59,164 nucleotides of DNA, filler included, from Dugesia japonica (GCA_001938525.1; 5 parts of 5 records of this genome joined end to end with filler, not necessarily neighbours in it), one strand, 5' to 3'. Positions 12,964 to 50,500 are shown, numbered from the whole stretch's first letter. The notes: generated by a model not told the origin, from the sequence alone. Numbers and translations are program-made.

Positions 12964-13089
12964 CTAAAGAAGAGGAGATGAATAAAGTAAATCAATATTA
13001 AAAATAATTAAAACACTACAATGTTAGATAAGTATGATATTTAACAGAACAAGTTAACATTGACATGTATTTTTCTGAATGGTATAATT

Positions 13090-13884: not shown

Positions 13885-14075
13885 TCAGATAGGGCCACCG
13901 CTGATAAAACCAGCATTCGGTGGTGTCAAGCTGTCGTTGAAAGATGGCCTTGGGTGGGAGGAGGTTTTCCTGTCCACTGGAATTCCCACATTCCTGTTAA
14001 AGGGGTTCTGAATGCGACGAAACAATACTAGACTCGTGGCTTCGACCAAAACTACCTGCCATCTGGATTTAGTCA
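13885..14075 (-). pseudogene. LTR cassette block B'
   Basis: TTGTTATAG|TG then TKSRWQVVLVEATSLVLFRRIQNPFNRNVGIPVDR, versus WDVTLDTRSGLTTFKKFRNLYNQDAGILVDR at 43407. Confidence 0.75.
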
Positions 14076-14214: not shown

Positions 14215-14460
14215 TCATCATTTGTTAACAGAGGGTTCCAGATGAAACATTTCGGCAAAGCATGACAGATTGGTTTCGTCTGGGTCCTCAATTCGCCCCA
14301 AAGGTAGCTTATTAACAATCAGTTGTGGTCGTTACACTATTTCTCTTTCACGACGGATCCATCGAAGGTGGTGAGCAGAGTACGAGTGTTGGGGTTTTAC
14401 CTTAGGTCGGTTAATTTTTTATATCACTAAATCTAGAGGTCGAATTTTGTGTAAAATTTA
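14215..14460 (-). pseudogene. LTR cassette leader remnant and block A'
   Basis: LHKIRP and the donor AAG|GTAAAACCCC (14400), then HLRWIRRERE...EDPDETNLSCFAEMFHLEP; homologous to 42969-43258. Confidence 0.75.
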
Positions 14461-24799: not shown

Positions 24800-24829
24800 G
24801 GTGTTTATGTGCGCCACTATCTATCTACT
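24800..24829 (-). mobile_element. Polinton terminal repeat end abutting a Gypsy gag
   Basis: GTGCGCCACTATCTATCTACT, the reverse complement of AGTAGATAGATAGTGGCGCAC. Confidence 0.65.
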
Positions 24830-24844
24830 GTCATTTCAATATTC

Positions 24845-25400
24845 TTAGAACCTCAACAACAAAGAATGTCCGAAGTTATGGAGACGTGGTACAGAAGAGA
24901 CAGTTGAGAGATACAAATATGAAAATAAATAAATATGATGAAAATAGACATATTTCAGTTTGTTGGACATGCCAAAAGCCAGTGCATATAAACAGAGATT
25001 ACCAAATGAAAAGAAGTATTCAATGCTATGAATGTGGAGCATTGGGACACATGCGCAGAGAATGCCAAACAATTCATTGTGGAAAATGTCTTTAACGGGG
25101 ACATAAAACAGCAGAATATTACACAAATTTAGAAAGAAGACAAAAAGCGAGAATAGTTGCTAATATAAATTATAAGATACATAATAAATTTAGAAATTAG
25201 ATTAATGAGACTAGAGATTCCATGAACAGAGATCAACAGAGGAACAGGCGAAGCCTAAAAATTATAGCAGCAATTGGTTCTAATTGGGATACAACCGAAG
25301 AACAAGCAAATGCACTAACTGGATAATATGAAGCAATGGAGTATCCAAAAGGTTATGCTCCTTCCAGAGAGGTGATAGTTGGAGCAATATTATTAAGTAG
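24845..25400 (+). pseudogene. Gypsy gag C-terminus with three CCHC zinc knuckles
   Basis: CWTCQKPVH, CYECGALGHMRREC, CGKCL.RGH; ends YPKGYAPSREVIVGAI, paralleling the gag end at ~29020-29075. Confidence 0.85.
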
Positions 25401-25734
25401 TTTTTATGTTGAGAATGATTTTGGCCATAATAATGTAAATAAAATAGAGTATTTTAATTTAAATAATAGTAAAGTTAAAATTTCATCTAGTAATAAATTT
25501 TATAATATGTATAGTAATAATTTTTTGATTTTTAAATATGATAATTATCTTGTAAATAATAATGATGACAACAATAATGAACACAATAAANCGTTAGATA
25601 ATAATGAGTATAAGGAAATAATTATTATTAAATATTTTTAACCAATAGAAAGTGAGTAATTTCCGTATTAAGTTTTGACCTGTTCTTTTCAATGATAATT
25701 ATTTTGAAATAGAGTTTTAGTAGTAAAATCAATA

Positions 25735-28700
25735 ATGTCTCAAAATATTAGTTTTGATTTGCAGAATGAATTACCAATTGAAGATTTACCTAACATGGTG
25801 GCAGCAGTAAATACCTATTATATTACAGAGAGATTATTGCCAAAAATGTTCTGGAGAGGAGTTGACATTGAGAAATTCATAAAGCGGTTTGAATTGTATT
25901 TCGAAGCTAATAACATCACCCATGTGAAAAAACAAGAGAGATTAGTCTTTTGTTTGTTAGATGAAGATTTGTTGGAAGAATATACAAAGACGATGAAAAT
26001 AGTTGAAGGTTTTCGGCTCGTTTAGGTATGGAATTTAAGAAAGAGAAAGATATTATCAAAGACTTTCAAAATTTGATTAACTAAAGGCCTGAAAATGAAG
26101 AGATTCAAGTTTATTTTAAAAAATGTAAAAGATTTAGTAAAAAGATTATTTACAAATAAAGATTTTACTGAAGAAAGATCCTAGTATATTGTTCAAATAA
26201 CAAAAGAGTTGAAGAAGAAGTGACTTTGCGGAAACGAAAGAGTAGAGAAAAACAGAGATCAAGTCAATGCAGTTAGAAGTTACGCGAGAGTTACAAGTCA
26301 AAATTATCAGAAACCTGTAAATCATACAGTGAATAGACATGTGGATCAAAGAAAGAAAAAATAAAATATCAAATGTTGGTTATATCATAAGATCGGTTAT
26401 ACTAAAGCAAATCTTTCGACCAAAAAAGTGGTCGAGTGTTATAAAATATGACTTGTTATAGGACTTTTTAGAAAGAAAAAAACTTGTTATAAAACAGGAT
26501 CTATAAGTCGAGATTTTTTTGGCTCCGGAAAAGTTGGTCATATTAAAAGGTTATGTCAAGAAGTGAAAATGAGGTGGTAATGGTGGACATAGGGCATAAG
26601 AGTGCTACACAAATATAAAAATGAAAAAATAAGTGAGAAATTTATGACTGCAGAAAGATCAAGAAACCGATATAATTGAGTACATGCGATTGAAGATGAA
26701 AATGTCAATTAATGCATCCAATACCGGCTATATATTTTAATACCGGTATTTCGGTACTGACAAATTTTAATACCGGCAATACTGGTATAATACCGGCATT
26801 GAAACTTAAAAAATTAAAACTTCCACGAGTTCCTCCTTCTTCAAAAACTGCAATCTCTTTGCGTATTGTTTTTGATAAAGCTTTTAAAACGCTCAATCTT
26901 CCCTAATTTTTACACTTCTTTCCATTCAAAATTGCCATGTCAAGCTTTTCTTTCAATGTCAAGTCTGCAGTGCTGTCAACAGAATCGCCATCAGATAAAA
27001 CGCTGGTCAAATGGAGAAGCTTGCCTGCTTGCTGATTGAGCCGCTCATTCAGTCAAACTATGGCATTTACAATGGCTGATTTGCTAAGGGGATCAAATGA
27101 CAGCGCTGGATCCGAATTCTCGTATCGTGCAGATATTGCAGCAAGTTAGAAAAAGTGGTCCGTCGCTCTTTTTTTCATATTACCAATGCAGTTTTCAATT
27201 TAACAGCTAAATCCGTGTCTCCAAGGTTATTTACCATGAACAATAGTGTTGTATCGGCTGACAACAGTGTCTCATCATTTTGGCACAATGTTTCCACGGC
27301 CAATTTTACTGGCACGAGACATGATACAACAGATGAAATTGTGTCGAACTCCTTATCAGTTATCTCAGTTTTTGACTCAAGGTCAATCAATGACTTGCAA
27401 ATGCAATTTTTCAATTTATGAAACATTCCAACATTGTGTGCAAGCTACTCCAACTAGTTTTAGAGTCGAGTATTAGTGGAAAAGCTTTACAAAATTCGTC
27501 TACTGTGTATGTTTGAATTGTTTTATCTTTTTTTGTAGGTGAACGGCGAAACAATTTTACAACGGTGTGCACCTTAGCAATTATCGGCTGCAAATCATTA
27601 GTCTGTTCAATAGTGTTGTTTTTCTCACTCATCGCAACTTGAAACCCGCCAAAAATGTCTTCTTCATCATCATTTGTTATGTTTGCGTCATAGTCAATTT
27701 CACTGTTATTCTCGTCATTGGAAATTCTTTTCAAGCTTTTTTTGGCAGAAGTTGACGATTTTTTGTACAAAACCTTTTGCACACCAAGTTGAATGCCATG
27801 AACAATGCAAAGCTGTTGATCACAATTGCTTGAACGTCCCACTTTTAGCATTACAGAAGCTCCATCAGTAAAAATGCACACAATGCCTTTCTCGTAATTC
27901 AGCATAAACTGCGTCAACACTTTTTGAACTAACTTTATGCATTTTTCAGCAGACAGTGAACCAACAACTCTAGCTAATCCAAGGTTCCAAAATTCATCCT
28001 TGATGTGAACGTTTACATTTAAATATCTACGATTTTTAATTGACGTCCACTCATCAAATGGCAAACTGAATCGCATTCCTTGCAGTAGGAGACGAATGAA
28101 CTTCGATATGACAGTCTCTCTGGTTGTGTTTGCGTATTTGACTACCGAATTTTAAATTGTCGTCGCCACTTTTGAAACAACAAATCCCCGAGCTTCTAGT
28201 GATGTTTTTAGTTAAGCTGATGATACAAATACGCTAAATGGCAGTCCGTTAAGAGCAGTCAAACTAGAGAAAACTGCGGGCAACGTTTTGTCATGTTGAT
28301 TTTGGAAGAAATCGGTGATCAAAGATTTGGGATATTTTGTCGATGGCAACGAAACCGTTGAAGATGTTGCGTCTTGGGGCGATTTTCTCTTTAGCAAGTC
28401 GATTTCATGGTTTGTTTTTAGATGTGCATGGAGTCCACTGGTACTGCCACCTTGTGATTTTATTTCTTTGTCGCATTTCTTAAATTTTGCAAGTTGATTT
28501 TTTTTATCAATCAGAAAATAAAACCACACAGAACTTTCGTCTACTCGTGCGCTGGTGCTGAACTCTTTGAATACCTTTTGGGACATGTTGGTTGTTTCTG
28601 GATAATAAGTTAATACAAAACTATCCATTAGACATAAAATATTTATTCTTAAATTAAATCCTTACTAAGTTAGCTTCTTAAAATAATTTACAAAAATATT

Positions 28701-30230
28701 TTTAAAAAAACTCAAAAAAACAACATAATTTTTAATAAACATTTAATACACTAATTTAAAATCATAATCCTAAAAATTAATTTATTTTGAAAAACTCAAA
28801 CTAATCAAGAATATTATATTTCACAATGAACATATTTGGGACTGTTGTATATCTTTTTTTTATTCAATACCGAAATACCGGTATTGAGCCAACTGAATAA
28901 CGGTATACCGGTATCAGTACTACCGGTATACCGGTATCAGTACTACCAGTATTGGATGCACTAATGTCAATGCAAACGATGGATATGAAGAAGTGTATGA
29001 AAGTGATTCTGAATGGCAGTACCTAAAATGCAGGGCTCCACAAGTAGATGAGTTAGTTGGAGCCATCCATCATTAAATGAATTAATTGATTATCCTCAAG
29101 GGGTCGAAAATGGTATGATATCGGAAAAGTTTCAGAAAAAGTATACAAGTTCTTAAAGAGGGAAAATTTTGCGGATTATAGAAAGGTAGAATGGGTTGGA
29201 ACAGTTGAAGCACAACAAAAAACAATTATTTTGTACCATAAATTGCAAGGCAAACCAAGTGTTATGGTATCAATTCAAGGAAATAAAGTTGAATGTCTTT
29301 TAGATACAGGGGCTAGAATTAACGTTATGAGTTTGATTTGTTTTAATAAATTACGAGAAGTTCATTTAGAAATGAGTGATGAAAGATTGAGTTGTGCTAA
29401 TAATAGTACACTTGAAATTGTTGTAAAACTTAGAATCGAGTGATAATTGATGAATTTTGCAAAGAGATTACTTTCTTAGTTGCTGAAAGNGTGACACCAG
29501 ATCTGATAGGAGGAATAGATATGCAGAAGATTTTTGGATTCCAGCTTATGCAAAACGTCGATAACAAAACGGATGAAAAAGTCGAAAATTACATGAGCAA
29601 TATTAAAGCAAAATTTAGAAGACAAATTAAAAAAGAAGAGTGATTGATAAGAGCATTAAATACTTTGAAGATTAAAGAGAATCATTAATTATTGAAAATA
29701 ATTGAAGTAAATAGAATGCTTTTATGGCAGATAAATGGGATGTAGGACGCACACATCTGATAAGACACAAAATAATCACAAGTGGTGACCCAATCAATGT
29801 AAAAATGTACAGGCAACCAATGAACGTAGAATCTAAAATTGAAGAAGTTATGCAAAACCTTTTCGAGAATAATAATATCCGGAAATGCAACTCTCTATAG
29901 AATACCCCACTGATATGTGTTCGGAAAAAAGAAAAGAAAGACATAAGAATATGTTTGGATTTAAAACAATTGAATGCTGTAACGAAAAGACAAGCCTTTA
30001 CAATGCCTAATGTCGATGAAAGGCTGGAAAAGTTAGATGGAGCTAAATATTTTAGTTCAATAGACTTGGGAAATGCATAATATCAGGTAGATCTCGAAGA
30101 AGAATCTCAAGAAAAAACGGCATTTTCAACGAAGCACGGACAATATTGTTTTAATAGAATGCCAGTTGACATCGCAGCGACACCAGGGACATTTCAAGAG
30201 ATGATGACAAAAGTGGTAGGCGGAATATGA
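25735..30230 (+). mobile_element. Decayed Gypsy internal region (gag-protease-RT) interrupted by a hAT element
   Basis: gag LPKMFWRGVDIEKFIKRFELYFEAN plus knuckle remnants; protease CLLDTGARINVM; RT PINVKMYRQP, DLGNA.YQV, KTAFST, FNRMP. Confidence 0.9.
26710..28963 (-). mobile_element. hAT DNA transposon, 2254 bp, with frameshifted and 3'-deleted transposase
   Basis: 18-bp TIRs TA(A/G)TGCATCCAATAC(C/T)GG; perfect 8-bp TSD ATGTCAAT (26702-26709, 28964-28971); subterminal ATACCGGTAT repeats; BED finger (SVWFYF..GSTSGLHAHL), FDEWTS, TDGASVM, CIVHGIQL, TSWSS. Confidence 0.96.
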
Positions 30231-30689
30231 GTAATATTTTAATTTTTATTTATATTATATCATATTATATTATATACAAATTTATATTTTAAAACATTTA
30301 AATATTATTCAAATACTACAGTAAAAAAAAGTACACAACAGATTTTTGAAATATAAAACATTTTAAAAATGCAAATTTATTTAAATAATTGCTATATTAG
30401 GTAAAATTGTAAAGGTATAAATGTCAACAATGATGATTCGGGAAATGCCAAGGCTCCAGTCAATGGGAAATGATAGGGGCTGTAAATTACATGTAAGATA
30501 TGATATTAATAATATGATGACTAGTATGTTTGAGTGTGATGATGATTATTTGAATAATTTTAATAATAGTATTAGTGTGATTGAAAATGACTCAATGATT
30601 GAATGTATATTTAAAAACGTGAATGATGAAAATAGATTTGCATGCTTGAATATTTGAATATTTTAAATTATTGTAACGTGATGGTAAAC

Positions 30690-31410
30690 CTTTTAATAAT
30701 ATTAAACTATATTCAAGTTATTTTAATGCATTATTTGATACTGGGTGGAAATAAGCGTAATGAGTAAAATTATAGCTATTGAAATGAAAAAATATCAAAT
30801 TTAATAATAAAAATGTTAATGATAAACAAATATTATGCGTAAATGGAAGGGCCATAAATATTATATATAAAGTAGATATAAATATTAAATTTAATAGGAA
30901 TCGATATTTTAAATTCTTTGCAAATAGAATTAATAGAAATAGATAGTATAAATCACAGCGTTTTAAATTAACAAGCTAAATTTTCAACAAATAATAAAAG
31001 TATTAATATTAGTAAACAATTAATTAAAAAATTAAAATTAAAAGACGATAATAGTATACATGATATTATTCTAAGGTATATTGGATTTTGTATAAACAAT
31101 AAATGGGATTTTACAGTTGCAATTTTTGTTAGAATAATTGTTGGACATAACCATTGATCGTTTTACAGAATTCGTTTAAAATTAAGCTTCGATTAAAAAA
31201 AAAGTTTCGATCAAAATTTTTTGCTTTTTTATTTAAAAAAAAATTTTAATCGAAGCTTTTATTTTAAATGAATAAATGGGATATTGGTAAACAGATATTT
31301 TAAAACATAAAATATAAACCGATTGGGAACCGATATTAATGAAAGCTAGAAAGCAGCCGATGCACTACGAAGAAAAAATAGTAGAAATTATATATAATCT
31401 AGAGGAAAAT
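30690..31410 (+). pseudogene. Highly decayed Gypsy protease/RT-start fragment
   Basis: ALFDTG at ~30728 and KWDIG..IF KH.I..IG.PI.MKARKQP at ~31275-31360. Confidence 0.55.
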
Positions 31411-31429
31411 GAGTAGTTAGATACTTCAG

Positions 31430-32270
31430 CACTATACCCTGTGGCTTTAGTTGCGACAATTTTTAAGGCTTTTTAAGCGGCAATATTTTTTAGGGTTTTT
31501 GGATGGGAATTTATTCGGTGAGGTCGAATGAGGTTAATTTTTGATTGGTTTTAAGTGTTTTTGTAAAACTATTTTTGGTGGGGTGGATTATGGTCAGTTT
31601 TTGGCTGGTTTGGATGAATTTGGTCCATTAATTCTTCTGGTTTGATCAGTTTGGGTCAACTTTGTATGTTTTAGATAATTTTTGGGTGATTTGTTAGAAT
31701 ACTTTCTCAATAATATAATTTCGTCTATTTTTGGGTAAGTTATGTGAAATTGAAAATAAATTTCATCGTTGAGGTCAAATCAGGTCAAATATGATCGGTT
31801 TTAGGTTAATTTGCTCAATTATTTCCTCCGGAATGGTCAGTTTGGTTAATTTTAGGGCGATTTTTTTGAAATTTTTCTCGTGTTTTATCAATTCAAGTAA
31901 TTCTTTGGCGATTTGGTCAAATATTTCCTCGATAATCGTTATTTTGGTCAATTTTTGGCTGGTTCCGTTGAATTTGGTCTAATATTTCTTCAGTGAGGTC
32001 GATTCTAAGCAAACTTGCTTGGTTTTAGGTTAATTTGGCCAAAGTTTTTTTTGGAAATGGTTAACTTGGGTAACTTTGGGGTGATTCAAGCAAATCTTTC
32101 ATCGATCTGGTTAAATTTGGTTCATTTTTTAGGGATTTGGTCAATTATTTAAATGCAAATGACTACTTTAGGTCAGTTTCGAGTAATGTTGGTCAGTTAT
32201 TTTCTTTGTTTGGCTAATGTTGGTCAATTATTTACACGGTTTAGGTAATATTGGTCGAATTGTTTACACT
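31430..32270. repeat. T/G-rich insert built from TTTGGTCAA-like motifs
   Basis: Dozens of TTGGTCA/TAGGTTAA variants with sharp compositional boundaries; class unresolved. Confidence 0.5.
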
Positions 32271-32274
32271 CTCA

Positions 32275-32555
32275 ATGACGAATCTTGAAAATGGATACTG
32301 CATCACACGAAAAGAATTATTGGCTGTTTATTATTTCTGTATGCAATTCAAACAATACTTGTACGGTAGAAGATTTAAATTTAGAAAAGATTATAAAGCT
32401 CTACCTTTTATGCTGACGTAATTTACGCAAGTCTATTGAACTGAAATATTTATAATTGAGAAAATTCACGAAAGATGGTATGCGGTAGTAAGAGAAAATG
32501 GACAGCGATTAGAAAGAAATAAGGAAAACTTAGAAATTTCTTAAGATAGGGGATT
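32275..32555 (+). pseudogene. Gypsy RNase H and pol-end fragment with polypurine tract
   Basis: GYCITRKELLAVYYFCMQFKQYLYGRRFK; ends ...TAAGATAGGGGAT. Confidence 0.75.
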
Positions 32556-35149: not shown

Positions 35150-36320
35150 CCTTGCTGAATGCGATAATAAAGATAATGAATAATAAACAGTTTTACCAGT
35201 TGATAACGTCACTCAGTCTGATTTCATTGTGTTCCTCTGGACTGGCGAGATCAAATAATTCCGCTGTGACGAATTCTCTGGAAAGAGGACAATCCGGATC
35301 AATTTCAAACATTCCCGAGAGTAAATATTCGATATCGACTGTTGTGATGAAATCCTTGTTGGGTCCCGAGAGAATATCGAACAAGTGTCGAGCGACAGTA
35401 GGATAATCGGGATCGATAAGCATGGCTTGAACGAGAACAAATTCAGAGAGATTCTGCGCGCATCNNNNNNNNNNNNNNNNNNNNNNNNNNNNNNAAACAT
35501 TCCAAATCAAACCATTTCTTGTTTGTGAAGAAATTCGTCAAAAAATCCATTGATAAATATCGAATTCAAATCTTTTTTATAGAAACTAGACAAAATAAAT
35601 TTATTTTTCCACGACAGATTTGTTCTTACTTTGTGAATTTCTCTTTACTTAACAGTTTAGTTTTGCTGCTTTCTTCTTCAGTTAATCGATCGAAAGTTTT
35701 CTTCCATTTGCAAAACCATTCGAAACTGTAAATATCATCNNNNNNNNNNNNNNNNNNNNNNNNNNNNNNNNNNNNNNNNNNNNNNNNNNNNNNNNNNNNN
35801 NNNNNNNNNNNNNNNNNNNNNNNNNNNNAATCGTAATCAAAATATAAAAGAGTGATTAGACAGATGTGTTCAATATACGAAATGTAAAGTTCTTCTTCTG
35901 CTTCACTTTCCTTTTTTCACATATTTAATTAAAACTAACAATTATTCATTAGAAATAACTTTACATTTAGAAAATTTCTTCTTAATAACATCATATCGCC
36001 AAGCAATTGTTTGAATGTAACATTTTCCATCTCGTATTCTGGTAATGATTTAATAATTTCATAATAATGCCAGTTTAATCTCCAGTATTCCACAATATAC
36101 GCTATCAAATCAGAAGATGAAATCAAGTCTAAGGTTGAATCGGTTTGTAGACCAGTAAACACGTCATTATTAAATATTCTATTTGAAAAATATTTGAATT
36201 TATAATATTTAATCATATTTTTACAATTTCAACTGAGGATATTTCTCAGCTATACTCATAACTTTGCTATAATCAATCAATTTTACTAGTTGATAGTTAA
36301 CTGATTGTTCATCGATTTCT
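35150..36320 (-). CDS. Divergent PP2A regulatory subunit B'' (PPP2R3C-like), multi-exon, partial
   Basis: Collinear blocks ISSSDLIAYIVE, LLGDMMLLR, KLLSKEKF, LNSIFINGFFDE and ARHLFDILSGPNKDFITTVDIEYLL...AELFDLASPEEHNEIRLSDVIN match the recalled PPP2R3C pattern (SDLENYILE / LDDLLELR / MLSKEEL / EIFDMVKP..ISLQDLIN); GT-AG intron at ~35586-35629; exon limits are obscured by gaps. Confidence 0.7.
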
Positions 36321-36999
36321 TCAATTAATAACTAAATCTTTAATATCAAAGATATCTATATGAGTAAGAATTAAAAACCTTTAAAGCATTAGAATTATCA
36401 TAGATTTGAAGATAATCTAAAGTATTTTTTTTAATAATAACAAGTTTATCTAATTCTTTATCAAAATCCATCTACATAAAAATTTTCTTTAAATATTTAT
36501 TAAAAAATCTAACAAACCATTCACAAGCAAATTTTAAATATTTAAACAAATTAAAAATGTTTAAGAAATAACTTAATTTTCAATTATTAATAATAAAATC
36601 AGAATTAAAAAAGAATTATTTTTAATCAATTTAAGCAAGAAATAAACCGAATAAATGAGGAAATAAAGAAAATAAATACTGATGGTAATTAGAGGGTGGG
36701 AAATAAAGAAGAGAAATTAATTATGGAAAAATTACAGTGAAAAATAAAATTAATTTCAATAAAATAGGATTAAATTAAAAAATAATTATTTAATTAATTG
36801 AAAAGATAAGAACAAAGGGCAATTAGTGAAAAAAAAGAGGAAGCAGCAAATAACTTTGGCCAGGATAATCAGAAAATTATCAGATAAGATAAGAAATATA
36901 AGAAAAAGGTAAAAAGATAGGCAAATAAGGGACCAGAAAACAGTTAAAACAAAGAAAAAAAATCTGGTGGTTACCTAAAATAACCACCAATACTATGTC

Positions 37000-38881
37000 A
37001 GTTACTATGTCATCTCTGTCCTAATGGAATTTACAATATCGAGAATTATATTTAACAGTTATAGAGAACTTATTTCAATCTCAATATCTTCGTACAAGTT
37101 AATTGGAATTTTAATCAAGTTTAGAAAAGTCTCTTAAAGTGATTCCTTCACTGTGCAGTTGGGTAAGGATTATTATAATCACTTTATTAGATAATAATGA
37201 TAGCCGGCTAGATGGATATAATCAGCATAACTGGATATTAGGTATTTTATGGTGATAGTGCGTTGATATTTCACAGATCCCGTCAATGACAACTATATCT
37301 ACATATTTTAACTACAGAGTCAAATAATTCGTTATGGAATTAACCGTATGCACGGGACATATATTCATTGCAACCTGGGAATCGAATGACATTCTTATTG
37401 ATATTTAAATTGTCTCACTGAACGAAATTATGTATGCAATAAAATTAATTATGTCAATCGTTTTCTTGTTCATTAAATAATCAGTGAATTTGTACCTATC
37501 TGAAAAAGGGATATTCCAAAACAATTTTTTTATCCTTGGATTAACTGTTATATAATCAATCATTCATTAGTCTCCGATTTTATGATACTTAGTGATTAAC
37601 ATATCTCCGCTTAACTCTGATTGCAATTAAATAGTTATAAAACATTAAATTTTAGATAAATATTGTTTTTTAAATAGAGGTTAATCAATGAAGTAAAATT
37701 TAGTTTGACGAAATCTAAAAGTTTTAATTTTGGTTAATTTAGTAACGAAATATAATTCTACATTTATGACAGATAAATTTTATAAATTTAACTTAATATC
37801 ATTAATGAAATTTTAATTTGACATTTACTAAAGATAAAATTTGTATTTTCTTATTCACACACTTAACACATAAAATAAATATAAAATAATCAATTACTTA
37901 TAAATATTCGATAAGATTGAGACAAAGTGAATCTTGCTGCAACGGGTTCCGGACTAATTTATGGTGAGTTCCTTCTTGTTAATATACTGATTTCTTTGGG
38001 TAATAATTTAGTTTCCTTCTGTAATTCTAAAAAATAATGAGTGTTGATGAGAGGAACTTAATCGGGTGTATCTTACAAACTTCCAAAGTTGATGTTGACT
38101 CAAATTTCCGAGATGACGTTTATTTTAACTGATTTTGCTGGATTCGGTGGTAGTGGTTATAGAGATTTCTTTTTCTATAATGAGCCTTTCGCAAAGTTAT
38201 ATTTCGTTGGATGATTTTTAGCTGGTAGCAACTTAGAAAATTTTTTCGTAAATCTAACCGTTTTGTAACTTGAAAAAATTGTGTTGTTTTTACTTGAAAG
38301 TTGAGGGTCCTTTTATAGGATTTTCTGGACACCCCAACGGCTCTTTTCTGGTTCTATTAGTGCTAGCACCGATTTTCAGAATTTTTCTACAAATTTCAGT
38401 GCCATGATTCGCAGTTATTTTNNNNNNNNNNNNNNNNNNNNNNNNNNNNNNNNNNNTTTTATTTTCTGACCGCTGATTGGTCGAATCTTAGGATCCCTCC
38501 CATACCCCTCTGGAAGGTGGTACGTTTTTTCTTTTTAGGGTCTGAATTGCACTTGGTTATTTTCCGCTCAATTTTTCTTGTTGGAGTCTTTTCTGATAAT
38601 CAGGGCCAGAGATATCCGTAAAAAACAGATTTTTATCTAATTTCATTTGATTTTTTGTTTAAAATTAATTAATTTTTCCATATTAATTAATTATTTTCTA
38701 TAATATTTTTCTTTATTAATTCTTTTTATTTATTAATTTTTTCTCAATTAAGGATCATATGCTGCTTCTATTTTCCTTGCATCTTCTTTATTTTAACTTC
38801 ATTTCTTTTTTATGGTTGCTTTTTTGTTTTATTTCCTTCTTTGGTTTATTCTCTTTTTTTGGTGGGTGTTTCACCCCAACA
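37000..38881 (-). mobile_element. 3' LTR (truncated) of the minus-strand Gypsy element
   Basis: TGTTGGGGTGAAACACCC starts at 38881, directly after the pol end and a purine tract (AAAGGAATATTAGGGATAT); homologous to 40176-41150; the left limit is approximate. Confidence 0.8.
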
Positions 38882-41800
38882 ATATCCCTAATATTCCTTT
38901 TCTTTAAAACTTTTGAGCCATTCAACATTTCTTATAAAATTTCTTCCCTTTATATCTGTAATTTCATAACTTCGTTCATGTAATCTTTTCGAAACTTTAT
39001 ACGGTCCATTATATCTTTCTACATTTTTATGTCGATTATCTTTTTTTACTAATACTGTGTCATCAACTGCAATGTTCTAATTCTCGAATGATGATCAACT
39101 GTGTTTTTATTATTATCTGTTATTTCTTCGTGAATAGGATTTCTATCTTGCATTTTATCCGTTTTATGCCATTCTGTTCTGTGTATTTTAAAACGAAAAA
39201 CCACTTCGACTGGACTCTTTTTACTTGTTTTTTGAGTTGAAGCATTCATGGAAAATTCTATTTCTGGAATCAAAACTGCCCATTTTTTGTTCTTATTATT
39301 CGTTACAGAAGTGTATTTATACAATATCTTATTGTTCTAAATTGTCGTTCTATTAATCCATTAGCGCTGTGGTGATATGGACTAGAATAAACTACTTGTA
39401 TCTTATATTTATCAACACATTCTTTAATTATTTTTTATTCAAAACTTTTACCGCAGTCTAAATATATTTTACGAGGTGCACCATATTTTAGAATCCATTT
39501 CTTAACCAAAGTATCAGTTATAGTATTTTCATCTTGTTTAGCGATTGCTGTTAATGAAATATACCTACTAAAATGATCTATTATTGCTAATAAATATTTT
39601 TCTTGATGCCAAGTTGACCACAAATATCAATATAAATATTCTAAAATGGCTTTGAAGATGTTTTTGGAATTATGTCATCTTTCGTTCCAGTAGTTATTAT
39701 TTTTGTTTTTGGGATGCTTCACATCCATCAATAATTTCTTTCACAAAGCTTGCCAAACTTTTCATATCAAAATTATTTTTAATATATGATTTTACTTTTT
39801 CACATCCAGGATGACATAAAATAAAATGAGTTTTTTTAATAAATTCAGCTTTCTTAATTTCTGGTATCCATATTTTATTATCTTTCGTTCTTATAATATC
39901 TTTTACTGACTGAAGATAACCCTTTCTAGTTTTTCCAATTTGCTTTTTTATTTCTTCTATTTCTTGAACTCCATGTTGCCATTCTTTTCCAACATTATCA
40001 GTCATTAATGTCAAGATACGAGTTTTTAACTTTCCTGATTTGGCTTTTGGATAACTCATTTGACACTGGGAACAAGCTGTACATGATTGTCGAGATAATG
40101 AATCAGCATTTTCATGTAAAATTCCCAGTCGATATTCCATCTTAATATCTAAACTGCTTAAGAAGTTTGTCCATGTGTTGGGGTGAAACACCCACTAAAG
40201 TAGAGAATAAATCAAGAGAGGAAATAGAGCACAAAAAGCAACAATAAAAGGAAATGAAATTAAAATGAAGAAGGTATAGAAGAAATGGAAGCTATTTATG
40301 ATCATTGATTAAGAAAATTTTAACAATTAAAAAGAAATAACCAGAAAAAATAATATGGAAAATAATTAATTAATACGAAAAAATTAATTAATTTCAAACA
40401 AAAAATAAACAAAATTAGTTAAAAATATGTTTTTTACCAATAACTCCGGGCCAAGACCTCAGAGAAAGTTCAAATAAGAAAAATTGAACAGAGAACCAGT
40501 CGGTGCAATAAGAATCCAAGAAAGAAAAAGCGTACCACCTTCCAGANNNNNNNNNNNNNNNNNNNNNNNNNNNNNNNNNNGACATCCAGAAAATAAAAAT
40601 AAAACAAAGACACCGATGTCAGGTGCTCCTCTAAAAATAGTTGCCAATCATGGCACCGAAATTTACAGAAAATTTCAGAAAATCCGTGCTGGCACCAATA
40701 AGATCGAAAAGAAGCTGGTCTAAAAATACCAGCAAATCTGAACATAGTTGGGGGTGTCCAGAAAACCATATATAAGGAACCCCAGTTTTAGACGGAAAAA
40801 ACTCAACAAAAACAAAAAACCAACTGATAATAAATCTTAAGTTCGACGTAATAAAAGCTTTAAGGATTTTTCTGTTGATTGATCTAAAGAAATTAATCAG
40901 TTATCAGTTACTGCGCAGCAAGTTGCCGAATAATTGAGAAATCGCATCAAGTGGGATAATTGTTAAACAGAACAAGCTTAATTAATTTTTCAGAACAATA
41001 ATTAAAGAAGTTCGATTCAAGAAGTTTTTTCTATTCGAAAACTAACAAGGCATATTTTACCAGTACCCGTTGCAGAGCAAAAAAGAAAACCGGCCCGAAT
41101 TAATTTATATTTTGTGGAAACCTTTATAAGTAATTATTTATTTCTGTGTTTTATGATGAAATATGCGTAAATGAATTTAGTAACTATATCTTTGATAAAA
41201 TAAACATTTAATCTTAATTTAATAAACCTTTGAGTATGTGTCTAAATCATTTTAACCAAATTATTTATATAGTTGACCAAGAAATAACATTTAATCGGAT
41301 TTCACTAAATAATCAAGTTTGCGAGTAAACAAAAAAACTCTGATACTTAATTCCCTCAAATGTATTCATATAATAAACATTAAACAAACTTTGAATCATA
41401 TTTCATGTGATGATTGAATGTAGGTGTTTTTAACTAACATTTCCCAACGAAAATTATTATTTTCACAAGCCTTACAACTTTATTTTTATAAGATTGATTA
41501 CCGATATGAATAAAATAATAAGTCATAATAAATGTATTCTGAATAAAAAAATCTTGTTTCATAAATGAACATGACAATATTTCGATACAATAAAGACTGA
41601 CCTGAAATTTNNNNNNNNNTAATCTCATTTAAAGAAAACCCACGATGATAAATATAACTCATAATGAGTAAATTTGATCCGCTGGAGTAAAATTCATTGT
41701 TACCTTGATTTCTTTGGTGAATAACGATGGCATATTAATTTGATTAAAATTTCCAATGTGGATTTAACTAACAAATTTTTGTCCAATACGATTAAATACT

Positions 41801-42660
41801 CCATCAAAAGCATAACTATAGATAATGCCCCTATTCCTCATTAATTGTAGTCTGAAATTTGATGGACTTGTCCTGTTCTATCATCTACTCCAGATGGCAT
41901 ATTTTTTCTTACTAAACTGAAAATGTCGTAATCTGATAACAAGCACCACAATGCCAAATTGTTGTAAATTAACTGTGTGTGTTAACAACTCCAACTGGTA
42001 CGATAATCGACCCACACACACTGTTTTAAACACACCCGCCACTAGTTGGAAATGATGGGAATTGAATTACTCTATATTAAGCCATGGCCTTGAATGGTAG
42101 GCATGGTAACATAAACAATATATTTTATTAAATTTTGTTAGTTCGATTTTCTTGTAACATTTTCTATATCTACTTAATTATAAATATTCATTGGCAAGTT
42201 GCAATAAAATACCACTGGTCAACGTAAGGACTCGGTACCTCTTTGAAATAAAACCTAGACGGTTACCAACTCTGAACTCACCAAGTGATCAATAAAATAT
42301 ATTACTTGGTAACAATTAGAATACTAAATATCGTTGTTAAGCATAAGATGCACAACCGTAATTGGGTGAAATCCCTCACATCATTCATGAATTAATTGAG
42401 TGAAATTATTGATTCTTGTATGCAATTGGGTTATTAACAGATTATGTGGATAAAGGATTAATTCACCCTCTCAGTATCACCATTATAATTCTTCATTTCA
42501 ATGCATGTTATCAATCTGATTAGCGATTCTTATTATGAACATTATGACTTCTCTGATTATTATTGTGGCCTTTGTGGTTGGGAGCAATTATGAGTATTGC
42601 TACAATTTTGTCATTTTCATAAGACGATAGTTTTTCTCATTATGATAATTAAGAATAGCC

Positions 42661-42693
<33 letters not shown>

Positions 42694-42968
42694 NNNNNNN
42701 NNNNNNNNNNNNNNNNNNNNNNNNNNNNNNNNNNNNNNNNNNNNNNNNNNNNNNNNNNNNNNNNNNNNNNNNNNNTGAGTATTTTTGCCTTGATTGTTAG
42801 AGACATTATGGTTGGTCCTACGCGTATCATATATCACTCCCAGTAGTCCTGCCATGATACTGATTCCTATTCCGTGGATATCCAATAAGAAATATAAATT
42901 CTGAGTAATGGCAAACTGAATATTCCTGTTAAGGTATCACCGTTACCAGCAGCGCTAGCCCCAGTATC

Positions 42969-43258
42969 ATGATTAAGGTCCATAAGATTCTACCCAGTAA
43001 ATTTATTAACGGTAAAACCCCCCAACCTCGACAATTATGAAATCATACGGTAATAAATTTTCTATTTTAGCAATGACAGCAAGACTACGCAACATGCTGC
43101 GATGGATCAAAAGACAGCGGCAATCCACTAGACTCAAACCATTAATTGCTCATTATCTAACACAGGGAGCAGTGGAACACCCCGACGAGACGGACCTTCA
43201 ATGTTTCGTCGAGATGTTCCCGCTCGCACCACGAGTCGATCTAGATAAGGGAGAATGA
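42969..43258 (+). CDS. LTR cassette leader exon (42969-43011) and terminal exon A (43071-43258)
   Basis: MIKVHKILPSKFIN G|GTAAAA phase-1 donor, 59-nt intron, TATTTTAG|CA acceptor in frame with MTARLRNMLRWIKR...PDETDLQCFVEMFP; TGA; AATAAA at 43303. The true start may lie further upstream. Confidence 0.7.
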
Positions 43259-43396
43259 TCAGCCCACTTGACGTTTAAGCATCCCTTTGATTTTTTTTTG
43301 CAAATAAAATGGTGTGTTGAGTTAAATTGAAATAATTGTTATATTCACCGTTCTTAATTCATCATATCGTCGATTTGTATAATTTTTCTTTTATAG

Positions 43397-43811
43397 GCTT
43401 TTAAAAATGGAATATGTCTGGGACGTGACCCTGGATACTCGATCTGGTCTAACCACATTCAAAAAATTTAGGAATCTCTATAATCAGGATGCAGGAATAC
43501 TAGTAGATCGCTCCAATGTATCTCCAGAGCAAGCCGAGTATGATCGCCACTGGGATGAGACGGAGCGAGCCGCTTACTATCATTGGCGTGGACCTAGAAG
43601 GGGACAATTAAGCTCTTCTCCCATATCGGCGGATGCATCCCTNCCACGCATAGATCGGGTGTGGTCGGAAAGCCCAACAGTAGTAGATCTGACCACAACC
43701 CAGCTACCTCCGTATTCGCAGCTTTCAGCGTTCATCCAGAATAATTTGTGGATTGAACGGAATGCCCTTAATTACGGGAACAACGAGAATGCGACTCAGG
43801 AGGATTTGTAG
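43397..43811 (+). CDS. LTR cassette exon B (134 aa from the ATG at 43407), unknown function
   Basis: Acceptor TTTTTATAG at 43396, open frame, TAG stop, AATAAA at 43888; homolog at 13885-14075. Confidence 0.7.
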
Positions 43812-43967
43812 CCCTCTCCTTTTTGTGTTTCTGAATGTGGTTTAGTTTAGTAGAAAAACTTAGGTGTCTTCTTTTGAGTCTGATTAGAATAAATAATTCT
43901 TTATGCGTTTCATAATTTAATTATATAAACCCTTATCGATTATTAATTGTATCTTGCTTTCTTATAG

Positions 43968-44328
43968 TGCACTCCTCGCTAAATCGCCCTCCGGCCCCCA
44001 CTAAAAAAATTCGTGAAGATAGTGAGGACATAGAGATGTCATGGAGTCTGTATCGTCTAGCTAAACGGCGGTGGGAAGCCGACGTAGCGACCGCGAATGC
44101 AAAGGTAAAAAGGTACAAAACTAAATGTACCAACATTCGCGAGGAAATGCGTCTTGTACAGGAACAAGAACGAGCCTGAAAAACCCAAGTCGAATCATTC
44201 GCAGAGATTATCCGGTCCAGCCATGACCGAAAAAATAAACTGGTGAAAGACATTTTGTTGTTAAAAGATAAGTCTTATCTGGAGCCCCTTATGATAGACA
44301 AGGGCACACAGACTAAGAATGCTTCCCG
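43968..44328 (+). pseudogene. LTR cassette exon C, coiled-coil protein with DKGTQT motif
   Basis: Acceptor TTTCTTATAG|TG; one TGA (44177) where the homolog has TGG; runs into an N gap. Confidence 0.8.
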
Positions 44329-44470
44329 NNNNNNNNNNNNNNNNNNNNNNNNNCATCAATTTTATTTTGTTACTTGATTGTTTTGGGTTTTTAAAGTCTC
44401 TTTTTGTTAATGATAGAATTGGTGGAAATTTTTACTTAGCTCATGCTCACTTAATATCCTTGTATTTTAG

Positions 44471-44853
44471 TGCCTAGGATTCAATTACCTAATAGCATCA
44501 GGAGATGTCATCGTGTCTTACGCCGCCTCCTCATCGAACGTCATTTGAAGAGAAAAGCTGATAAGGCTCTGCTAAAACACCTAGAACAACGCGATCGATT
44601 AATTAAAAAACTCGACCTTGTTATAAAGAAACAAACGGATTGAGCCACCCAAACTAAAGCTTTGGAAGCTGAAAACAAACTTCTTCTGCAGCGCAAGATA
44701 GACTTTCTAAAACAATATATTGCTGACCAGTCGCTCCAGATTGGCAATCCAAATACTACTCAGTGGGATGAAGACGACGATATAGCCATGTTTAATTTCA
44801 TCACCACTACCCCTGACCAATGGCTAGATCCGGAAGCTGTCGATTTATTATAA
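44471..44853 (+). pseudogene. LTR cassette exon D, basic/coiled-coil protein with acidic-aromatic tail
   Basis: Acceptor TGTATTTTAG|TG; PRIQLPNSIRRCHRVL...WDEDDDIAMFNFITTTPDQWLDPEAVDLL*; one internal TGA (44641); AATAAA at 44868. Confidence 0.8.
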
Positions 44854-46448
44854 ATATGTTATTATTAAATAAATATTTTGATTAGAATAATAAAGACTTT
44901 TAATTATCCCAAAATAATAATAGGGAAAATTTATAGAACCCGAATCAAAGGTTTGCTGGTGGGCACCTCCCATTAGGATTGAGGTCAACCGCAGTAAACT
45001 GAAAGTCTACCATAGGGACGGTAGGATTAAATTCTTGAAAGGGTTCCCCTGAGAACTGTTTTTCCCCAGTCACTTTTCAAACTCAGGTAGAACCCCAACA
45101 CATGTCTGGAATTGTGAAGTAATCGGCTTTTTTGTAGATAACATAAAAGTAATAGCCTTATGATCCGTTCGAAGAAAAAATTATTTATCATACAAATAAT
45201 GATTGAAGTGTTGAGTGAAATAATAAATAGCTAACAATTCCTTTCTTGTAATACAAGAAACTCTTTCGTGCGAACTCATTGCATGTGATCCATAAAAAAT
45301 AAATCGTTCGTTACCATTTTCATCTAATTGTGAGAGTATTGCTCCAATTACATCAAAGCTAGAGTCCATGTCCAAAATAAAAGCTTTGTTGAAATCCGGA
45401 AACACTGGAATTTTCTGTAAAGCCATTTTTAATTAATTAAACGACTCATCACACTGATCAGACCAAATCAACTTTTCATTACCTTTACCACACAATGCCT
45501 CTAGAATTCTAGCCTTTTCTGCATATTTATTTATAAGTTTTCAATAATAATTACATAATTCTAAAAAACTTCTCAAACTCTTAATACATTTCGTCCTTTC
45601 AAATTTACTTATTGCTACAATTTTACTTTGATCTGTACGTATTCCCTCACTTGTAATAATATGTCCGAGAAATTTAACTTCTTTTTTCAATAACGAACAT
45701 TTGTCTGAATTAATTCTTAAACCTGCAGTTTTTATTTTACTTAACACATTATTTAAATGAATCATGTGCTCTTCCAAGGAATTAGAAAAACTAAGATATC
45801 ATTCAAATAAACCAAGGCTTTGACACCATTTATCTCGATTAATACTTTATTCATAAGTTATTGAAACCTTTCTGGAGCAGCAACATTACCAAATGACATT
45901 CTTGTAAAATAGAATTGTCCTAATTTTGTTGAAAATGCTGTTTTTTCTTGTGATTTTCATCCAATTCCACTTGATAATAAGCATTTCCAAGNTCAATTGA
46001 ACTAAAATATCGTGCACCAAGTAAAGTATCCAACAATTCTTCCACATTTGGCATCGGGAAAGTTTGTCTAACAGTTATTTTGTTTAGTTGTCTANNNNNN
46101 NNNNNNNNNNNNNNNNNNNNNNNNNNNNNNNNNNNNNNNNNNNNNNNNNNNNNNNNNNNNNNNNNNNNNNNNNNNNNNNNNNNNNNNNNNNNNNNNNNNN
46201 NNNNNNNNNNNNNNNNNNNNNNNNNNNNNNNNNNNNNNNNNNNNNNNNNNNNNNNNNNNNNNNNNNNNNNCTTCGGTTATTATCGAATGTTTTATCAAAT
46301 TTGTACATTCAATATCCCACGCGTCTACCATGAAAGCTGACTTGTTTTTAGTTATTATATGATATAATTCAGAATTTTTCTCTATTTTAAAAGTTTTTAT
46401 AGCCTTCTCAAATCTTTGCTCATCAGTTACTTCTTTACCAAAATTTGT

Positions 46449-47586: not shown

Positions 47587-50500
47587 ATGGAATGGTGGGC
47601 AATATTTCTTATGGTTTTGGTTTTGTTTACCCTAGTTATATGTGTTTCATATTTTGTGTTAAAAATTTATTTCCCATACCATTTTGCAACCTTCAGTTAC
47701 CATGTCAATACAGGAGGACATTATGCTTCCAATGAACCACCAACTTTGGCTACTTTTCGATCGAAATCTGACGTAAGTTTAGAAAAAATATAAAATTATT
47801 TAAAAATTACAAAGAAAATTATTTCCAATTAGGGAGATATTATTTTTACTGAAACCGGTTGTTATGCTAAACCAAATACTGCTTCGGGGAAATCGTTATT
47901 GTCTACATCGAGAGGTAACATTAATTATTTCTATTTTACTTAATTAGTTTAACTAGATTTAGATGATCTCCCAGTAACAACCGATTCTACTATATTACTA
48001 GATAGTTCTGTTACAGAATTAGGACAAATTCAAATTGGTCTTGATGTAGATTATGATACATCAGAATTGGTAGTATTAGTTATTCAAGGAAAACGATTTC
48101 AATTACCAGATTCTGTTGATATCAAAAACACAATTGAAGAATTAGATTTCTATATTTGTTTAGACTTAATTCACAGTGACGACATTACCAGCTCATCTAA
48201 AACAAAAGTTAATTTTGAATTTTTCTTNNNNNNNNNNNNNNNNNNNNNNNNNNNNNNNNNNNNNNNNNNNNNNNNNNNNNNNNNNNNNNNNNNNNNNNNN
48301 NNNNNNNNNNNNNNNNNNNNNNNNNNNNNNNNNNNNNNNNNNNNNNNNNNNNNNNNNNNNNNNNNNNNNNNNNNNNNNNNNNNNNNNNNNNNNNNNNNNN
48401 NNNNNNNNNNNNNNNNNNNNNNNNNNNNNNNNNNNNNNNNNNNNNNNNNNNNNNNNNATTTTTGATAAGAGAATTCCATAAATTTTTTAGTTAGATTATT
48501 GTTATTATTTGTAGTTTTTATTTGTATTTGATTTATAATTATTAAATTATTTTTTTCAGAAATGCATAAAATAATTGTTTTTTGAAACAAGTAAAATATA
48601 TAAAATAAAAAATTCAAAAATATCAATTATATTCCAAATTATTACTTAAAACTATTACTGATAATTATTACTTAAAAATACTTTCAAATTATTCCAATGA
48701 AGTCTTTTTTGTAGGAAAATGCCATATATATATACATGTAAAAATTATTGATGTAACAACGAAATAATATATAAAAATTAATTTTTTTTTAAATTATATC
48801 TTGTGTTTTCTTAAACTTGAAGACTAACACAAAGTTATACAAATTTTTTTTTAAAGAAAATTATTTAACAGATAAATACAACCACAAACAATTTAATTTC
48901 AAAGTGAATTTCGAAATATGCTTTTGCTAAAAATTCTCTTATATGCTGATAGAATGATTTTTTTCGCTTAACAACATTGTCAATATAAATTTTCTAATTA
49001 TTTTTTTTCCTAAATTTTCTAAAAATTTTCTAAAAATTTCCTAATTATTGTTTTCGTTTTATGCAGCCTAATATTGTCCATTAAAAAAGTTTTATTTCAA
49101 AATAGATTAATTTCATCACACTCTTGTAAAAGAAAATTGAAAATTTTCTGAATCAACTTTATTCAATGTATTTGCATTTCAATACTCTTTCTGTTGAAAT
49201 AACTACCGATATACTATTTGTTCCCTATTTGTTGAAACTGTTATTCTGGCTGGAAAACGTTTGGAATTATTGACTGTTTTTCTTATCCATAATAATTATC
49301 AGTCACCTTCATGTTATTCTCGGTTTTTTAAAGTATTTTGAAATACTAGATTGGCATTTATTTCTTCATCATATTGACATAGACTGGCATCTTCAATAAA
49401 TTTTTAAGCTGTATTTATCAGTTTATCTGATTAAAAGATTAGCTTTCGTAGCCGACTTATTAATTAATTTAATAATAATAATATTATTTAATTTAATAAT
49501 AATTTAATAATTAATGAAAATTAATTAATTAATTTTGGAAAGTCACAATCGTTTTTCTTCATTGCTTTATTCAGCCAATTATTAACAGTTATTTAGGACA
49601 AGCTCAAATCCTCGGTAATTTCACTTACATTCTTACCTAATGAATACATGTTTCATATATTTTTAATTGTTGCCAATGTGATATTTCTCCATTTTTCCCG
49701 TATTATTTCAGACAAGTTACTTGTTGGATATTCACCGTTGATCATTAGGAGTGAACAATTTTTAAAACGATATATAAATAAATTTATATAAATAAATAAA
49801 TAAATTTTTATGGAATAAATAGAAAAACTGACTACTAATTTTACTAAAAAAAATTTTTTATTTTATCTCAAATCAACATCTGATATTGCCGCTAGTCTTT
49901 TACTTTATTTTATATTTTTTCTTTAATTTTTAAACTTTCTAAAAATATCTAATTAAATGATTTGAAAATGTTAAATTAAAAATTAAACATCAGAATAACC
50001 ATTGTCAACTGTGAACATAATTAAATCATCTTATAGCATGTTTCTTTTTTTAATTTGAATTTATAAATGAATAGTTATTGTTTAAATAAATTGAACAGTT
50101 TGAATTAAATCGAGTAATTTTGTCTTTTAAAACAAATACCTATTTATATGAATCAAGTAATTTGAAAATTATATTTCTTATCGTTTTATTTAAAAATAAA
50201 ATAAAGAAAGTAATAAAGAAAAACGAAAATATTTTCGTCATTTTTATGGAATTAAAATAATACGGTTTAAAAAAAGTTTATTTAAATAACGAGGAAATAA
50301 TATATAAACTTAATTATGTATTAGCTATTTCAGGGGTGCACAATCTTTTTTCTAGACGGGCTTCAAATCAATGTCGCTGGCCATGTAAAAATTTTGGGTC
50401 GAATGTTATGCATCACTGATTTTATAGGTACTATACTATGTAACTTAGAAAATTTAATATAGTAATGGTAAAGTGTCATTTTGCAGCTAGAATTTTGGAG

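Follow-up and report, generated by a model that had tools for sequence, protein, structure and literature searches.

Long terminal repeats (LTRs) are usually viewed as modules that supply a promoter and a terminator but code for no protein, and a solo LTR as a remnant that is inert or at most regulatory. We describe here a 4925-bp solo LTR of the Ty3/Gypsy family from Dugesia japonica (GCA_001938525.1), which very probably holds a cassette of four coding blocks, named A to D. It lies in a window of 59,164 nt (the whole stretch of DNA analysed), which consists of several AT-rich contigs joined by N-spacers, and the argument rests on the DNA of three related LTRs within it. Single genes in a comparable position are found in mouse mammary tumour virus (sag) and in lentiviruses (nef), where one open reading frame (ORF) lies within or overlaps the LTR, in U3 upstream of the promoter, and is expressed from the 3' LTR. 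In the present case, four ORFs lie downstream of a TATA box, and a solo LTR would contain promoter, leader, genes and polyadenylation (poly(A)) signals. The adenovirus major late unit joins one non-coding leader to many alternative acceptors, some of them with a common poly(A) site; here the likeness is one of logic only, in that C and D would share such a site, and homology is not expected.

Within the Gypsy elements, the env start codon of errantiviruses of the springer subclade is made by splicing (10.1101/2023.08.03.551782). Springer and the present family are both Gypsy elements, and a splice-made start codon is predicted here too; the Springer leader, which begins in the 5' LTR, is free of AUG (10.1101/2023.08.03.551782; PMC13097621). 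As described there, the springer codon is split as AU|G, has a single target (env, after pol), and is served by a donor 43 nt outside the LTR, whereas the present LTR would use an A|UG split with several targets, its candidate donor and its genes are placed within the LTR, and no env follows integrase. Errantiviruses are marked by a fusion glycoprotein encoded in a third ORF behind pol, which is absent here: the end of integrase abuts a purine tract, and A-D give no Pfam match. At the level of DNA, the pattern seen here fits a start codon A|TG that would be made at the splice junction. In the MDG1 group (412, Mdg1, Stalker), a Gypsy element likewise has small accessory ORFs, sORF1 and sORF2, close to its 5' end; they are under purifying selection, and an early poly(A) site stands behind sORF1 (PMC11952523). 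In contrast to the present four ORFs, which lie inside the LTR with acceptors, these are two, lie upstream of gag on unspliced RNA, and include a membrane fusogen, sORF2 (PMC11952523). The unspliced small ORFs upstream of gag that typify MDG1 have no counterpart here, as A-D are located between both LTR termini and behind aligned acceptors. The LTR cassette would resemble springer env and the MDG1 sORFs in its working, yet lacks the defining features of both.

Like the present family, the planarian Burro/GYPSM1 elements are Gypsy elements of large size from a genome of the AT-rich type, and they have accessory ORFs as well as additional domains of regulatory appearance (PMC6431247). The internal region of Burro/GYPSM1 reaches up to 25 kb. 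They are unlike the present family by description, as the extras (MATH, BIR, BCL2, env, dUTPase) are placed inside, or immediately ahead of, a polyprotein of ~4,900 amino acids, with env before protease (PMC6431247). The available text of that report makes no mention of genes inside the LTR, and MATH-, BIR- or BCL2-type domains, as in the Burro/GYPSM1 accessory ORFs, were not found in A-D at the Pfam curated cut-off. The accessible parts of PMC11410931, PMC8532177 and PMC13524379 contain nothing on LTR-borne genes, and the literature searched showed no account of several spliced genes forming a cassette within the LTR of a retrotransposon; supplements and Repbase entries may contain one.

The solo LTR and its relatives

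The solo LTR (40176..45100, +) opens with TGTTGGGG at 40176 and closes with CCCCAACA at 45100, and thereby displays the TG...CA ends with short inverted repeats of Ty3/Gypsy LTRs. It is flanked on each side by CATG (40172-40175 and 45101-45104), a target-site duplication within the 4-6 bp usual for the group, and it splits a pol gene on the minus strand whose reading rejoins across the insertion site. The original prediction had called the unit a Gypsy LTR, which is borne out by the termini, the CATG duplication and the continuity of pol; these 4.9 kb make up a solo LTR of Ty3/Gypsy type.

The broken host element (38882..46400, -) comprises reverse transcriptase (RT), RNase H and integrase, with Pfam matches to RVT_1 (3e-08), RT_RNaseH_2 (3e-19) and the zinc finger Integrase_H2C2 (1.7e-06), followed by a purine tract at 38882-38905; its contig ends at 46448, within RT. 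Directly after the end of integrase and the purine tract, an LTR begins at 38881 (36990..38881, -), which is therefore the 3' LTR of the interrupted element, a homologue of the solo LTR placed behind the polypurine tract of an RT-RNase H-integrase pol. This host LTR belongs to the same family (78% identity over 374 nt to 40176-40546), and its TATA box, leader and donor align with those of the solo LTR over ~1 kb. It ends ~1.9 kb in (~36990), short of the cassette position. A more distant and more decayed LTR of the family lies on a second contig, contig 2 (12400..16187, -), with 68% identity over 88 nt and its 3' end lost within an AAT run. It carries A (14426-14218, its start uncertain), B (14075-13885), C (13415-13041) and D (12963-12603). 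The 16-nt terminus of the family, TGTTGGGGTGAAACAC, is present exactly at three sites (40176, 38881 and 16187), where 0.32 occurrences with up to three mismatches are expected.

Since the only pol-linked LTR seen ends before the cassette, and the cassette-bearing units differ in length (4.9 versus ~3.8 kb), the 4.9-kb unit might instead be a non-autonomous passenger with LTR ends that acquired the cassette. Two distant units, however, share both termini and cassette, promoter, leader and donor of the 4.9-kb unit are alignable with the pol-linked LTR, and this unit is not bounded by short direct repeats, so that a passenger seems quite improbable compared with a genuine LTR.

Several further observations concern this family. 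The element into which the solo LTR was inserted is older and belongs to the same family. The flanks at 40172-40175 (CATG) and at 16188-16191 (CTAG) are both 4-bp palindromes, a hint of target preference. A fourth, older fragment that resembles the 5' part of the LTR (58-68% identity) is found at 36500-36990 (+), head-on against the truncated host 3' LTR.

Four small genes behind putative splice acceptors

Blocks A, B, C and D are found in the same order on contig 2, with 31-57% identity (tblastx). Over 249 aligned codons, counted after removal of short spurious matches and of a segment of C that was out of register, identity between the two copies at codon positions 1, 2 and 3 is 0.58, 0.66 and 0.33. 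The corresponding values are 0.70, 0.72 and 0.49 for the pol control, and 0.76/0.76/0.77 and 0.73/0.72/0.57 for non-coding LTR segments picked alike. Within the aligned segments of both copies, the modelled frame contains 7 stops, compared with 37 and 47 in two shifted frames. A-D have diverged in a coding-type fashion, and the blocks, judged by this pattern, were genes.

Putative acceptors at 43071, 43397, 43968 and 44471 each have 9-10 pyrimidines in the 12 bases before YAG, and those of B, C and D align with sites at 14075, 13415 and 12963 on contig 2. The positions agree with the original prediction, as do the phases: under the leader proposed there, A, C and D resume in phase 1, and B needs a 1-nt indel in the solo LTR and is in phase 1 on contig 2. 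Its account of the gene ends likewise holds, with stops of their own for A (43256-43258), B (43809-43811) and D (44851-44853), followed by AATAAA at 43303, 43888 and 44868/44889, respectively, and with the end of C falling in or after a gap. On contig 2, every block reaches a stop, C at 13041, and the stops of A and D are aligned between the copies.

Their collinear order and common acceptor phase would also be expected of exons of one gene, captured or borne by the element and chained by internal donors, and C does contain a strong donor-like site (44104). This site, however, is the single one in C of the solo LTR and falls mid-gene, at codon 45 of 119, in phase 0 and with conserved coding past it. 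Donors with at least 6 of 9 U1 consensus matches number zero in A, B and D of the solo LTR, donor-like sites of the two copies differ in position and phase, and the stops just described close each block. Chaining of A-B-C-D into one ORF, which would have spoken against the unit as originally conceived, is unlikely from the DNA, and we regard a single spliced gene as improbable. A-D, as read from their sequence, are four separately ending small genes behind putative splice acceptors, in sense orientation to the inferred LTR promoter. Of the four-terminal-exon unit proposed earlier, the separate small genes behind acceptors inside the LTR are retained, while its specific leader and donor are given up, as are its four poly(A) sites, C being without a signal.

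A proposed ATG-free leader with split start codons

The inferred LTR promoter is marked by a TATA-like box (40769..40775, +) after GGGG(G)TGTCCAGAAAA, which aligns with that of the host LTR at 38317; a TATA-like box is also present at 15169 on contig 2. From these boxes, the cassette lies downstream of, and sense to, the putative promoter. The candidate non-coding leader exon (40800..41129, +, start approximate) ends in A|GTAATT, and TTTATAAGTAATT is identical and aligned in the host LTR at 37898. At this aligned and identical junction, TTTATAA|GTAATT (41129 and 37898), GC content drops from ~31% to 17-21%. No sense ATG occurs at 40651-41152 in the solo LTR or along the 530 nt that correspond to it in the host LTR (79 of 9358 background 330-nt windows are ATG-free), and the first ATG follows 24-27 nt past the donor in both. 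These features point to a candidate leader that would end in A, ~360 nt after the TATA box.

At the acceptors, a complementary pattern is observed. TG directly follows the acceptor AG at five of the seven clear acceptors, as against 41 of 480 background T-rich acceptor-like sites, and the two without TG, those of A and B in the solo LTR, have an in-frame ATG of their own within 10 nt. A leader ending in A would therefore make the start codon A|TG on splicing, and B of the solo LTR, having its own ATG, would need no indel. Spliced from 41129, all four genes of the solo LTR would begin at the first AUG, with an A at -3 as read from the sequence.

We postulate that transcription would begin at ~40800, from the LTR promoter, and that one ATG-free leader would splice from 41129 to each of the acceptors of A-D. 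The start codon A|TG would arise by splicing for C and D (and for B, perhaps also A, in the contig-2 lineage), with A and B of the solo LTR using their own ATG. Poly(A) addition would follow A, B and D, and C would use the site of D. Expression of A-D by alternative splicing from one shared leader appears likely on these patterns, and the specific ATG-free leader with its donor at 41129 and split start codons is the version that we moderately favour.

A different leader was originally proposed at 42969..43011 (+), in which 14 codons ending in a phase-1 donor at 43011 would be spliced to any of four terminal exons and would form the common N-terminus of four proteins. Its frame is open, 59 nt separate G|GTAAAA from the first base after a good acceptor, A, C and D of the solo LTR resume in phase 1, and GGTAAAACCCC is conserved on contig 2. 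There, however, the leader frame reads stop-P-T-stop into the 'donor', one stop standing immediately before G|GTAAAA and another three codons earlier, so that two of its last four codons are stops. No AG occurs between this site and the core of A on contig 2. The conserved GTAAAACCC there belongs to the frame of A itself, which a weak TTTAG|TG at 14426 would open; in the solo-LTR copy, the motif is out of frame with A. Moreover, the stretch from the inferred LTR start site to 42969 contains 40 ATGs, the donor at 43011 has 5 of 9 U1 matches, B of the solo LTR requires an extra indel, and the TG after the acceptors is left without explanation. The stretch is thus not supported as a coding leader, and this earlier scheme now appears unlikely.

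The shared leader could also be another, unrecognised exon, coding or not, which might be located within the GC-rich 42776-43010 or the gap at 42694-42775, for instance. A GC-rich stretch stands just before A in both copies, and contig 2 has several further A|GT sites; the two stretches, however, have no protein or clear DNA match to each other, and the ATG-free stretch ending at 41129 would stay unexplained. We hold such an exon to have a small but real chance. The GC-rich stretches themselves (42776-43010 and 14600-14470, -) each contain AGTATCATGA, possibly from a further decayed exon or a lost start of A.

Spliced leaders of flatworms end in AUG. Close-set genes, each with an acceptor, resemble operons, and a leader of this kind trans-spliced to the acceptors could start each protein with its terminal AUG. 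That AUG would open frame 0 after the AG, however, and the conserved frame of C and D begins two bases in, which leaves trans-splicing highly improbable beside the cis-spliced leader ending at 41129. Within the contig-2 leader, a 66-nt exact duplicate surrounds a 50-N gap (14956-15137) and is likely an assembly artefact.

Polyadenylation and the 3' end of the LTR

The hexamer AATAAA is weak evidence in this DNA, being present in 755 of 3112 AT-rich 80-nt windows. Downstream of A, no hexamer but AATACA and AATATA, variants that are common, is seen on contig 2; both are used as poly(A) signals in planarians (PMC5068929). Between the end of C and the acceptor of D, none of five planarian hexamers occurs in either copy, outside the 25-N gap of the solo LTR, and C therefore probably shares the poly(A) site of D.

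Downstream of D, a conserved 3' region (44940..45035, +) has predicted hairpins common to contig 2, with both partners altered in 8 of the 24 pairs predicted (from two sequences only); its single-sequence fold has a z of -1.47. A fifth acceptor-like site, TTTTTCCCCAG (45053..45069, +), is situated 31 nt before the LTR end and aligns with ~12407 on contig 2. Speculatively, this acceptor might join the leader to gag-pol in the full element, skipping the cassette; equally, it may be part of the structure. AATAAA occurs also at 40829/40850, and these hexamers, besides those after D, are candidate poly(A) sites of the genomic RNA. Foamy viruses answer a similar problem with a major splice donor within the LTR (PMC3694450), and the candidate donor of the present family also lies in its LTR.

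Predicted gene products

Gene A (43071..43258, +) has its acceptor, its own ATG at 43073 and an intact frame of 61 amino acids, with a basic start and the conserved core E-x-PDET-x-L-x-CF-x-EMF; AATAAA follows at 43303. Gene B (43397..43811, +) has an in-frame ATG of its own at 43407 (AAAATGG) and encodes ~134 amino acids, with one N in its sequence and AATAAA at 43888; it matches contig 2 only around 43419-43544 (31%). Gene C (43968..44328, +) starts at AG|TG and has a heptad pattern with a predicted coiled coil; it contains a premature stop at 44177, ends in or after the gap, and no poly(A) signal was seen for it. An LC8-type motif, DKGTQT, is found at 44297-44314, with D-K-x-T-Q kept in both copies. 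The LC8-binding motif is given as [D/S]-K-x-[TVI]-Q-[TV]-[DE], often beside coiled coils (PMC3078936); as a sequence match, DKGTQTK of the solo LTR misses the last position only, and DKATQNR of contig 2 the last two. Gene D (44471..44853, +) also starts at AG|TG and is followed by AATAAA at 44868 and 44889. Its first 80 residues are basic and are accompanied by a heptad pattern with a predicted coiled coil and an acidic-aromatic tail. The in-frame premature stops of C (44177) and D (44641), which the original prediction did not mention, are matched by sense codons on contig 2, a copy that has more such stops elsewhere.

A basic region, a coiled coil and an acidic-aromatic tail together make up the layout of a transcriptional activator. 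By analogy, D would be built like such an activator and C like an LC8-dimerised coiled-coil adaptor, and A-D may be regulatory accessory proteins as in complex retroviruses, a view held with less confidence than the gene structure. No obvious membrane segment was noted in A-D by inspection.

The original prediction recognised none of the proteins, and database searches agree. Pfam, PHROGs and PDB sequences gave nothing above cut-off for A-D (D against Pfam only, as two pieces). The large protein collections were searched with A and C, and B and D were covered less widely. No relative of C was found among near-length proteins (0 of 19 candidates) or viral stretches (0 of 11), and none of A in 337 metagenome stretches; a further search with A gave no candidate. 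An Atlas search returned nothing usable for C and one lead of 0.77 for A. Among 1.84 billion representatives, a single weak match to C, a tetratricopeptide (TPR)-repeat protein, was rejected. With the two-sequence alignment of A, 2 of 210 were picked out; neither was accepted, as the first falls within the ORF of an unrelated enzyme of bacterial type and the second in DNA of 67% GC.

Weight of evidence and implications

As a whole, we tentatively propose that the LTR holds a complete viral-style unit, with a promoter, an ATG-free leader, at least four regulatory genes enabled only by splicing, through split start codons, and a last acceptor that passes this leader on to gag-pol, and that intact solo LTRs supply the proteins in trans; we give this full reading clearly less than an even chance. 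A number of observations weigh against the cassette with its ATG-free leader as postulated above. Only two cassette copies are available, both decayed, and the pol-linked LTR ends before the cassette, so that homology of the 5' part is what ties the family to an autonomous element. The codon signal is inflated somewhat because tblastx selects conserved segments, and synonymous exceed nonsynonymous differences (pS/pN) in the non-coding controls too (0.39/0.21 and 0.47/0.29); such selection does not account for all of the signal. The candidate donor has 6 of 9 U1 matches, and AGTAATT is expected 0.19 times per kb by chance. As the leaders of the solo and host LTRs are related, they are not independent, and as the C and D acceptors are homologous between the copies, the five of seven really represent three positions. 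On contig 2, the acceptor of A at 14426 is weak (7 of 12 pyrimidines) and was picked out after the hypothesis had been formed, C is out of frame from its TG to its core, and an ATG at 14872 precedes the candidate donor at 14767 in a leader that aligns poorly. The functions proposed for the proteins derive from their composition and a single short motif, and the predicted fold of A is of low confidence (predicted local distance difference test, pLDDT, 54).

Because the whole unit sits within the LTR, any solo LTR that is intact would be an expression cassette in its own right. Each would then provide, in trans, a protein of transactivator type together with an LC8-binding adaptor, and would be a mobile protein-coding cassette rather than a dead end. 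If so, the commonest remnant of the element would still be able to encode proteins, which belong to no known family. Gene regulation of the complex-retrovirus type would extend to an invertebrate retrotransposon, with selected LTR genes gated by start-building alternative splicing. Products encoded by planarian LTRs could matter to the host; the Burro1 retrotransposon is reported to affect planarian stem-cell survival (as cited in PMC13465017).

Other features of the window

Within the solo LTR, an antisense frame at 41620-42291 (-) with 8 stops in 224 codons is probably due to chance: over 41620-42690, it has 20 stops in 356 codons, compared with 22-41 in the other five frames. It has no Pfam or PHROG match, and PDB matches only at E 0.6-1.

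Outside the LTR family, another decayed Gypsy element spans 24800-32420 (+), with zinc knuckle and protease matches and with RT and RNase H (tblastx); no matching LTR terminus was seen for it. A transposase-like insert within it (27100-28660, -) has motifs that we take to be hAT-like. Probable host gene exons are found at 35193-36228 (-) and 47953-48465 (+), the latter with a resemblance to a C2 domain. A tandem array of an 82-bp unit with ~90% identity occupies 1-566. Finally, two intact small ORFs are convergent: one at 9862-10140 (+) encodes ~82 amino acids with a hydrophobic C-terminus and is followed by AATAAA, and the other at 10585-10926 (-) encodes ~89 amino acids in what we take to be a helix-turn-helix pattern.

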